A DNA stretch of 56,273 nucleotides, filler included, from Basidiobolus ranarum (GCA_040143965.1; 6 parts of 6 records of this genome joined end to end with filler, not necessarily neighbours in it); one strand, 5' to 3'. Counted from the first letter of the whole stretch, positions 40,601-43,514 are shown. Numbers and translations: made by a program. The notes: generated by a model not told the origin, from the letters alone.

Positions 40601-43514
40601 CTTTGCCGCCATGAAGTTTTACCAATTCCTGTGTCAGTGATAATCCAATTCCAGTTCCCTCGTGACTCCGGCCTCTCTGGCCCTCCACTCGATGGAATCG
40701 TTCAAAGATTCTGTGGATTTCGTGAGGCGGGATACCGCTGCCAGTATCCGAAACAGTGAGTATAACACTAGTACGATCAGGGGAAGGGCCCATATTTACT
40801 TTGATAATTCCTTTCATAGTGAATTTAAAAGCATTCCTAAAACGAATTTTTAGATATGACCTTAGAGATATCGTACGCACTAATCCACATACCCTATTAA
40901 GTTGAAAACTATTTTTTCCCACATTTCGGGATCAACCCATACTAATTTTCCACCTTCATCGCATTCTACTTCAAACTTTAGGCCACCCTTTTCAATGGCT
41001 GAACGAAATACACTTGCTAAATCTGCTGTAAACTTCCCGAGATCTGTTTCTTGATATGTTGCCTAAAATATTCGATGGGTATAAGTTTGATACAATTACG
41101 TATAAAAGTTAGATAAATATCCATTATTCCATACCTGTAATCTTCCTGCTTCAATACGACTGAAGTCCAACAGTGAATTTACAAGTCTTAATAATCTCTT
41201 TGAATTACGGTGTACCATATTTAATCTGGTTTTATGATCTAATGTTAAACTATTATCTGCCAATGATTCTTTTATCGGTCCGAGTATTAGAGTAAGTGGT
41301 GTGCGTAATTCATGGGATACGGAGCTGAAGAATGATGTTTTGGCTCGATCGATGGCAGCAAGTGCTTCTACCCGGTTCACTTGGTCTTCGTAGGCGCGAA
41401 TAGTCGCCAAGACGGTGCCTGTTTGACGTGATAACAGCTCTATGAATGTTCTTCAAACGATATTAATACGTTGCAATGGAAAAATATCTAAAAGGTCATA
41501 TTTCAGTTGAACGTACTTATAATCTTCATCATAGCTTCTTCTCGAGTTCAACCCCATTAGCAGCATACCCAGTATACCATCTTGGTCATTCCCAACAATC
41601 GGGCAAGCCACGGCCATTCGTACAGGTTCGTCCCAGCCTCTTGTAGGCAAATCATCGAATAACTCACTAAGATTGTCAATCAATACTACTGCCTTAGTTT
41701 TCATTACTTGGTCAAATATCCTCCTCCAGGGATGATTATCTTCGGACTCAGAAAGACACACTTTACGTGGTGCAGCGATGTGACTATTTGAGATACCAAC
41801 TGTTTCAACTAGCTGAAATATATCGTTAGATTGTCTGTCTTCTTCCTCCTCAAATAGGTCATTATCAGTCGTGGATCCATCAAGGTTTGTACGAGTATAA
41901 AAGAGAGCAAACGGAACATCAAAAACGTTTTCAGTTAGTACTGACCCTATCATACTGAAAACTTCCTCGCAACATTTAGCACCAGCAGTTGTCGCGCCAA
42001 GGTCTCGTAACGTGTTGAGTCGTCGTTCTGAGATAACACGACTTGTACTCTCAATGGAGGGATTTAACAAACCCCCGACTGAACCATCTTCTTGCCTAAT
42101 AGGTATATATGACCACTAATTACGAACGTTAATTCAGGATCAATTATCGCAATTCATTTGAAAATTAATCTTACAGTATGATAGGTTTCTTCGATGAATC
42201 CGCTCCTTGTCATAAACAACAGGTGGTCTTCAGAATAACAATTCTCTCCGCGCATCACACTTTCCGCCATTGGTTTCAAGGTTGGCCATATCTCACTCCA
42301 CCCGTCTGAACCATCCTTACCAAACAGCCACGGATGTTTTCCAGCGGCTACTACACTATATCCATCATTACTTCATTTGGGTTAGATTATGGCTAACAAA
42401 TGTCAGTAAAATATCACCCTTAATTGACTTACTATATTAAAACAAATTTAGGGCCCCACCACACAGCCATAGGAAATGATGATGCCATACAAAGTGATAC
42501 GGCAGTTAGCAAAGACTGTGGCCATTGGGCAATTGGGCCCAAACTACTACTATTCCAGTCATAACATCTCAAGTATTCGCCCATAAAGCCACCACCGGAA
42601 AGTGTATCTATGAACTAGTTTAAATTGATGTTAGAATAAGTCAACTATAGAATGATATACATACAGGCAGGTAAAATTTACTTTAGGTATAGTCTTCCAG
42701 TTCACCTCTTGAAGATTCGTCTGATTATTCTGAGGAACGATATCGGTATGTTCAATAATTTCTGTTGTTGTATTATTGTATTCCAAATTTTTCGTATGTT
42801 CCGTAAAGAAATTTCCCGTTAGAACTATAACGGAGTGTTGGACACAAGTGGAAGTCCACTCAACCTGCGTCCGTGACGAGTTGATGTATGACTTGTCAGG
42901 ATCAAACGTTCGTAAATATGTTATGAGGGTGCTAGTGTCCGATTTGAAGGCTACCTCACGAAGCCAAATGTTTAGAGCTGCTAAATCCTGCTGATCGAAA
43001 AGGCACTGCAAGTCTAAGCTTTTTTCAAGTGTAAAATAAGGCTCAGGCGCAGGTTTATGTTGTAAACCACATAAACCTAGTAGAGTTCCATTTGTATATA
43101 AAAGTAGAGGTAAGGGGTCAATCAATGAATTTTGAGGAAACTTGACAACAAATGCAGGACTTGATAAGCAGTTCAAATATTCTTCTAGCGAAACGGGCAA
43201 TGGTTTAGGGAATACCTCCCAGCCAGGGATAACTGCAGCTCTCAACGAAGGGACAGCATGATAAGCGAATTCGTTCCTTTCTAAATCAAAGTCAAAATGG
43301 TTTGAGTAAAAATGAAAGTTTTACACCTTCGTCCAAGAAACCCCTACCGATAGCGATGATTCTATATTCTTTAGGAAGACTGGCAGCCAGTTCTTTGGCA
43401 GCAGCAATACCTGTAATGACCAAATAACGTTAGGAACTGGTCAAAAATAGGAAAAAGATAAGACTAACCTGCATAAGAAAGACCAATGATGATAACGTTT
43501 TTGGTTTCCGACAT
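37615..43514 (-). CDS. Dual hybrid histidine kinase (PAS-like/PAS-GAF-HisKA-HATPase-REC-PAS-HisKA-HATPase-REC), ~15 exons visible; 3' truncated in the second receiver. The 5' exons encode an AMID-like FAD-binding beta-alpha-beta motif
   Basis: Module 1: DWNSSSLGPIAQWPQSL PAS-type sensor, H-box SSVSHELRTPLTLILGP, N-box EKIVFNLIGNAFKFT, DTGSGIP and GTGIGLSL, REC ILLVDDNADM...SDVMMP...KPFS. Module 2: H-box DMTCHELRNPLNGI, INFLTNAIRFT, DSGVGM and GGSGLGL, REC ILVVEDNLINQ. First exons 43469-43514, 43348-43410 and 42682-43280 join in frame. Confidence 0.9.

Follow-up and report, generated by a model that had tools for sequence, protein, structure and literature searches.

Gene fusion by 5' exon capture is a well-known kind of event; the chimeric gene jingwei of Drosophila is reportedly an example, and Anderson and Roth are said to have described join-point fusions at duplication junctions. 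Loci in which shared 5' exons are spliced to alternative downstream genes are known from animals as nested or alternative-3' arrangements. Here we examine a locus of Basidiobolus ranarum in a window of 56,273 bases (the whole stretch of DNA that was analysed), where a minus-strand gene opens with three oxidoreductase-derived exons and runs, in one reading frame, into a dual hybrid histidine kinase. The initial annotation had read the junction as a candidate splice switch through which one promoter would serve two unrelated proteins, with a rearrangement breakpoint as the alternative. Our analysis supports the latter, as oxidoreductase homology ends at residue 58 and kinase homology starts at residue 61. 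The locus is probably an in-frame chimeric gene created by DNA rearrangement (5' exon capture), in which the first three exons of an oxidoreductase gene head the kinase.

In the available portions of PMC4965123 and PMC5285503, the dual hybrid histidine kinase group (e.g., Tco2 of Cryptococcus neoformans) is described as first thought limited to Basidiomycota and later reported in early-diverging fungi, and Basidiobolus is credited with about 15-20 histidine kinases. The downstream part of the gene under study, previously labelled a kinase, is indeed one, in the sense of a dual hybrid histidine kinase and not of a protein Ser/Thr kinase. Two HisKA, HATPase_c and receiver modules follow each other in one polypeptide (Pfam, module 1: HisKA 1.4e-17, HATPase_c 1e-19, Response_reg 1.3e-25; module 2: HisKA 3.6e-6, HATPase_c 7.7e-21, Response_reg 4.6e-5 over its first 48 positions, the domain being cut by the contig end), and Pfam also finds a GAF domain ahead of the first HisKA. 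Thirteen Basidiobolus and chytrid proteins with the same Pfam sets are 44.7-69.8% identical to it over about 1400-1690 aligned residues, the nearest being K493DRAFT_253700 of B. meristosporus (69.8%), while the paralog K7432_006063 of the same genome is 63.6% identical. By comparison with this paralog, roughly 90 kinase codons are still missing past the contig end.

The gene was modelled by hand as 15 exons on the minus strand, from the ATG at 43514 to 37677, with an in-frame stop 7 codons upstream of the ATG. All 14 introns are GT..AG introns of 56-84 nt that keep the frame. Across all 1640 residues the model equals the public model K7432_011228 (Basidiobolus ranarum, hypothetical protein, 1647 aa), which a protein search recovered as a 100% match to the exon spanning the junction and whose last 7 residues are read-through of the intron cut by the contig end. 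The window itself is not one molecule: it consists of 6 pieces of 9278-9318 bp each, joined by linkers (N44-TTAATTAATTAA-N44), and the junction sits in piece 5 (37615-46895). Position 37615 is a true contig end, as had been assumed at the outset, judging from the linker joints and from the 9281-bp contig that carries the public protein.

The three oxidoreductase-derived exons (43514-43216) code for 58 residues and are separated by GT..AG introns of 58 and 67 nt. Residues 1-58 align with FSP1/AIFM2 in PDB (residues 11-60, E=0.004) and match Pyr_redox_2 (PF07992) at E=0.001, below the Pfam cut-off because no more than 40 profile positions are covered. An exhaustive HMMER search over 1.84 billion representative sequences gave E<=0.001 for 176 proteins, of which the best (about 1e-13 to 1e-14) are 53-63% identical; the matches fall on residues 1-60 of ~380-aa proteins. 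Pfam scanning of 18 of the matched proteins (5 of the best plus 13 longer than 500 aa) found Pyr_redox_2 in 17 and kinase domains in none. Finally, 58 full-length AMID-like proteins were used to build a profile, which aligns with residues 1-58 at 83.4 bits (E=8e-28) and without indels, so that both captured introns are exactly placed, and which has no further match in the 1647-aa protein. This short stretch has the N-terminal beta-alpha-beta unit of the type that binds flavin adenine dinucleotide (FAD) or its adenosine diphosphate (ADP) part, with a glycine-rich loop and, where strand 2 ends, an acidic residue. The second Rossmann unit, for NAD(P)H (reduced nicotinamide adenine dinucleotide, with or without phosphate), and the remaining ~320 residues were found neither in the window nor in the 1647-aa protein. 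Residues 1-58 are thus a fragment of the FSP1/AIFM2-like family and not a member of it, and a remnant of 58 residues is far too short to act as an oxidoreductase.

The boundary between the two homology blocks is sharp. On the minus strand CCT GGC TGG GAG ends at 43216 and GTATTC follows directly, with its GT at 43215-43214, exactly as previously read off the sequence. A kinase profile made from the N-termini of 7 full-length relatives matches residues 61-419, which leaves V59 and F60 (GTATTC, 43215-43210) as the only residues outside both blocks. Two adjacent blocks from unrelated families (1-58; 61-419 onward) hence share one frame with no stop between them, and the oxidoreductase exons run unbroken into a gene of more than 1640 residues. 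Where the paralog K7432_006063 starts MLLTTHPKGMSLETVT/KPLPVSLEEYLNC, the gene of the window reads ...AAVIPGWEVFP/KPLPVSLEEYLNC. An invariant Leu (L68 here) lies at residue 14-23 in all seven full-length relatives (B. ranarum, B. meristosporus and the chytrids Spizellomyces, Fimicolochytrium and Rhizophlyctis), each of which has its own Met. Relatives therefore start with a short leader followed by the conserved domain, so that the kinase of the window has lost leader and ATG and carries 58 foreign residues instead. Among 150 listed oxidoreductase-type matches, the protein of the window (P0001) is the only one longer than 1100 aa that is matched at its N-terminus, and a Pyr_redox domain was found in none of the 109 listed kinase relatives. 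Similarity at the join itself was considered as well. AMID relatives often read ...GWE-DK-x-F-x-PL, loosely like the VFPKPL of the window, and microhomology is not claimed, as parent DNA would be needed.

There is no other start codon for the kinase near the junction. Exon 3 holds no Met and no stop, and the next in-frame Met past the junction is M247, leaving 177 codons open, which has a chance probability of about 6e-6 given the contig composition. Unless the PAS-like domain is untranslated, translation would have to enter from upstream, and the sole in-frame route that has homology support is offered by the three oxidoreductase exons. In the sequence of events that we favour, the kinase would have lost its own start codon and a leader of roughly 10-20 residues, and an FSP1/AIFM2(AMID)-like FAD-dependent oxidoreductase would have contributed its promoter, ATG and first three exons, with the join inside GTATTC. 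Transcription would start from the oxidoreductase promoter, the two short captured introns would be spliced out and 43216/43215 would be read through, giving a single fused mRNA and one protein made of a 58-residue beta-alpha-beta remnant, a PAS-like domain, PAS, GAF and two HisKA-HATPase_c-REC modules. Most likely, the remnant would only supply expression signals and a tolerated N-terminal tag in front of an intact sensor domain.

For residues 62-195 (about 42800-43209), the conserved N-terminal domain of the kinase family, Pfam gave no match. An AlphaFold model made from an eight-sequence alignment (mean predicted local distance difference test score, pLDDT, 65.6) forms, at residues 68-194, a helix, five strands and further helices, with blocks at pLDDT 85-92. 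A beta-alpha-beta unit occupies residues 7-37 (strand 7-12, helix 16-26, strand 32-37), and residues 41-59 and 198-238 are of low confidence. Foldseek placed short LOV proteins and sensor-kinase PAS domains on top for residues 68-194 (best E=1.3e-4; 20 chains at E<=0.001). The domain is thus predicted to adopt a PAS/LOV-like fold and may be an undescribed PAS variant kept from Basidiobolus to chytrids, which would put the breakpoint just ahead of an intact sensor domain.

It could be argued that the oxidoreductase exons are real DNA and nevertheless a mere leftover, the kinase being translated from M247 (MGEYLR...) or on its way to becoming a pseudogene, so that the fused protein would be irrelevant to the cell. 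We regard this as unlikely, though it is the most serious of the competing explanations. It can draw on K493DRAFT_253700, whose model begins exactly at the equivalent Met, and on the 6 of 9 B. meristosporus family models that are shown without part or all of the N-terminal domain. Against it, the PAS-like region stays open over the 177 codons from the junction to M247, keeps the motifs of the family (e.g., VEWTSTCVQHSVIVLTG versus VEWTSTCVQNSIIVLSG in the paralog) and is predicted to fold as a PAS domain with blocks of high pLDDT, and 14 of 14 introns of the gene retain GT..AG and frame. A very recent event, on the other hand, would leave the same picture of open frames and intact introns.

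The state of the remnant bears on the age of the event. It exhibits no decay, scoring 91.8 bits where the corresponding part of the 58 genuine members has a median of 77, although the proteins of this profile were chosen for their likeness to the remnant. This fits either recent capture or constraint. Under the second option, the capture would be old and maintained, with the remnant under selection as a working N-terminal module, e.g., a nucleotide-binding or docking element before the PAS domain; the capture would be shared by the B. meristosporus ortholog, whose model perhaps starts at the next Met because its own start codon is missing too. Such a history, which we consider improbable, would explain why the fragment fits its family no worse than complete members do.

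The undecayed remnant could also be invoked for the splice switch, in which GAG/GTATTC would be a working donor of a complete oxidoreductase gene, with the kinase nested in its intron, the remaining exons past the contig end and two unrelated proteins made from one promoter. This model takes its appeal from the GT directly after the last oxidoreductase codon, from the GTATTT donor used once in the same gene, and from the fact that the sequence past 37615 lies outside the contig. The likeness to AAG/GTATTT stands, this being the real donor of intron 13. GAG/GTATTC itself does not stand out as a donor: GAG/GTATTCCC scores 2.27 bits versus 6.85-9.55 for the real donors, under a weight matrix made from the gene's own 15 donors, which is small and, being trained on real sites, flatters them. 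With 59 of the 269 exonic GTs scoring higher, it ranks 60th in that matrix, so no competent donor was found at the branch point; by chance alone, one codon in 16 is followed by a GT. The intron in question would span more than 5.6 kb plus the ~90 missing kinase codons, versus 56-84 nt for all 14 introns of the gene. Searching the whole window with tblastn and 58 full-length AMID-like queries gave matches only at 43171-43514, all others having E>=0.07, and no oxidoreductase exon was seen elsewhere; the earlier statement that the remaining exons are not in the window was thus correct. Among the relatives from the HMMER search, many short fragmentary models depart from the consensus at, or immediately ahead of, the Gly of PGWE, which is what reading through an intron would produce, and of the 3 relatives classed as having GWE followed by other sequence none resembles an intron tail. 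Since no read-through tail is observed right after GWE in relatives, there is no sign of an intron at the position of 43215. A nearby acceptor for the candidate donor was sought too. The sole frame-keeping intron in the size range is one of 75 nt ending at 43141, and it was rejected because it would delete the most conserved PAS-like motif (KPLPVSLEEYLNC...). A splice switch skipping the whole kinase consequently finds no support in the donor, the intron sizes or the window, and we deem it extremely improbable.

An in-frame chimera by exon capture, the reading that we prefer, presupposes a correct assembly, and several considerations weigh against it. The assembly is fragmented and only one contig, of 9.3 kb, carries the junction, and K7432_011228 is itself a prediction that is not independent of our hand-built model. 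K493DRAFT_253700 is modelled without the N-terminal extension, from the Met equivalent to M247, and translation may start there. Open frames would also be poor evidence of function for an event of very recent date. Moreover, a word-index search for an N-terminus near-identical to residues 1-62 among proteins of 30-904 aa returned 98 candidates, none at E<=0.01, and no parent oxidoreductase was identified in it; being sensitive to near-identity only, this search missed the 176 HMMER relatives, and its outcome argues only against a near-identical copy, not for an absence of relatives. 

Another explanation is that the assembler joined two unrelated loci at 43215 and that a gene predictor bridged them. 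The assembly is made of short contigs (six in the window, 9278-9318 bp) and the junction is seen in one contig and one protein record only. Two metagenome scans did not yield a second copy: a scan with the exon 3 protein as query gave 67 pattern matches of which none was confirmed, and one with a degenerate 41-nt pattern spanning the junction gave 0 matches. Against this stands a search for repeats, direct or inverted, which found none at or near the junction that could invite misassembly. The join is also in frame, leaves the open reading frame intact, removes only the unstructured leader of the kinase and lies no more than two codons from where oxidoreductase homology stops. An in-frame join that costs no more than a leader is expected of a selected or tolerated genomic event and not of a random one, and we consider an artefact very unlikely, if still somewhat less so than a splice switch.

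Table 1. Features of the locus and its surroundings (positions counted from the first base of the window; / marks an exon-intron boundary)
Feature	Position	Strand	Description
Exon 1	43469..43514	-	ATG and first 15 1/3 codons of FSP1/AMID-like N-terminus (MSETKNVIIIGLSYAG, G-x-S-x-x-G dinucleotide-binding loop); donor CAG/GTTAGT
Exon 2	43348..43410	-	Helix A and strand 2 of beta-alpha-beta unit (IAAAKELAASLPKEYRIIAI); donor TCG/GTAGGG
Exon 3, oxidoreductase-derived 5' part	43216..43280	-	ERNEFAYHAVPSLRAAVIPGWE; family homology stops at GAG 43218-43216
Junction hexamer GTATTC (V59 F60)	43210..43215	-	Matches neither parent family; candidate donor of the initial annotation; breakpoint in or beside hexamer
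Exon 3, remainder	42682..43209	-	N-terminal PAS-like domain of kinase family and linker (PKPLPVSLEEYLNC...); 0 Met, 0 stops; homologous to relatives from their residues 10-20 on
Exons 4-15, dual hybrid histidine kinase	37677..42614	-	PAS (WPQSLL motif), GAF, HisKA, HATPase_c, REC, PAS, HisKA, HATPase_c, start of second REC; cut by contig end 37615
Presumed promoter and 5' untranslated region, intergenic	43515..44156	-	Upstream of ATG 43514; upstream limit is stop of Myb/SANT-like gene; promoter role putative
Upstream neighbour, Myb/SANT-like gene	44160-45507	- (same strand as chimeric gene)	Myb_DNA-bind_4, E=6.4e-18
N runs	9319-9418, 18731-18830, 28131-28230, 37515-37614, 46896-46995		Contig joints; no feature may be read across

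Upstream of the chimeric gene, the stop of the Myb/SANT-like gene lies 640 bp from the ATG. This neighbour carries a long poly-Gln tract encoded by a CAG-CAA repeat (44740-44927). The presumed promoter region contains a 43-nt tandem duplication at 43937-44022, with copies 91% identical, and a short tandem of two TTCTGGTAGCACGCA units at about 43600-43635.

Other observations concern the kinases. In B. meristosporus (P0003-P0016) the dual histidine kinase family is expanded, with at least 9 models, 4 of which share a 36,332-bp contig and 4 a 57,075-bp contig; the six models lacking part or all of the N-terminal PAS-like domain are P0005, P0007, P0012, P0013, P0014 and P0016. The pattern suggests that the genes lie in tandem arrays and are often truncated at the 5' end or mis-modelled. 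Within the gene of the window, exons 4-5 (42175-42614; WPQSLLTAVS...YNDGY...KHPWLFG) encode a second PAS-type sensor region, and many bacterial histidine kinases (Rhizobium, Brevundimonas, Mucilaginibacter, metagenomic) have N-terminal sensor domains that share about 40-56% identity with it. Such identity is unusually high between a fungus and bacteria and is a hint that the sensor module was transferred long ago.

Altogether, the locus is probably an ordinary, lineage-specific, one-off gene fusion, and a splice switch making two proteins is unlikely. Our literature search, which covered articles without their supplements, found no description of the fusion. The locus opens no long-standing question, known gene-fusion biology being sufficient as a mechanism. 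If the fused transcript is real, it would offer a clean case, from nature, of a large signalling gene put under a foreign promoter and start codon. With a breakpoint placed to within two codons and a sensor domain left intact, the locus would be useful material on how genes are born through exon capture, in a kinase family of early-diverging fungi that is expanded and prone to rearrangement. Annotators are also warned that the N-terminus of K7432_011228, for all its likeness to an oxidoreductase, is no sign of redox enzymology.

How the locus relates to described systems can be summarized for each of its parts. Three features tie it to the FSP1/AIFM2 (AMID) family: the dinucleotide-binding loop, which reads GLSYAG here and GLGFAG or GLSWAG in relatives, the LRAAV.PGWE motif, and E37 as the acidic residue that closes strand 2. 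It differs in retaining 58 of ~380 residues, with neither a second Rossmann unit, for NAD(P)H, nor a C-terminal domain in the window, and in what follows GWE: [DNE]K[IV]... in the family (38 of 130 parsed matches) but VFPKPLPVSLEEY, i.e. kinase sequence, here. Fungal dual hybrid histidine kinases, compared directly for Basidiobolus and chytrid proteins and by description for Tco2, have in common with it two successive HisKA-HATPase_c-REC modules behind PAS and GAF sensor domains. Of the 109 relatives listed, it alone begins with foreign residues derived from an oxidoreductase; it lacks a start and leader of its own, and its second receiver is cut by the contig end. Loci with shared 5' exons resemble the model first proposed, with common first exons and a GT at the branch point, but neither alternative downstream exons nor a competent donor nor long introns were seen in this gene. 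Join-point fusions differ from the locus in that near-identical parental copies were not found (within the genome, the kinase paralog that comes nearest reaches 63.6% identity, and the word-index search returned no near-identical oxidoreductase N-terminus), and it is therefore not a fresh tandem-duplication join point. With chimeras made by 5' exon capture and with join-point fusions the locus shares its general design: two unrelated homology blocks meet at a sharp in-frame boundary, and the promoter and ATG of the donor would drive the recipient.

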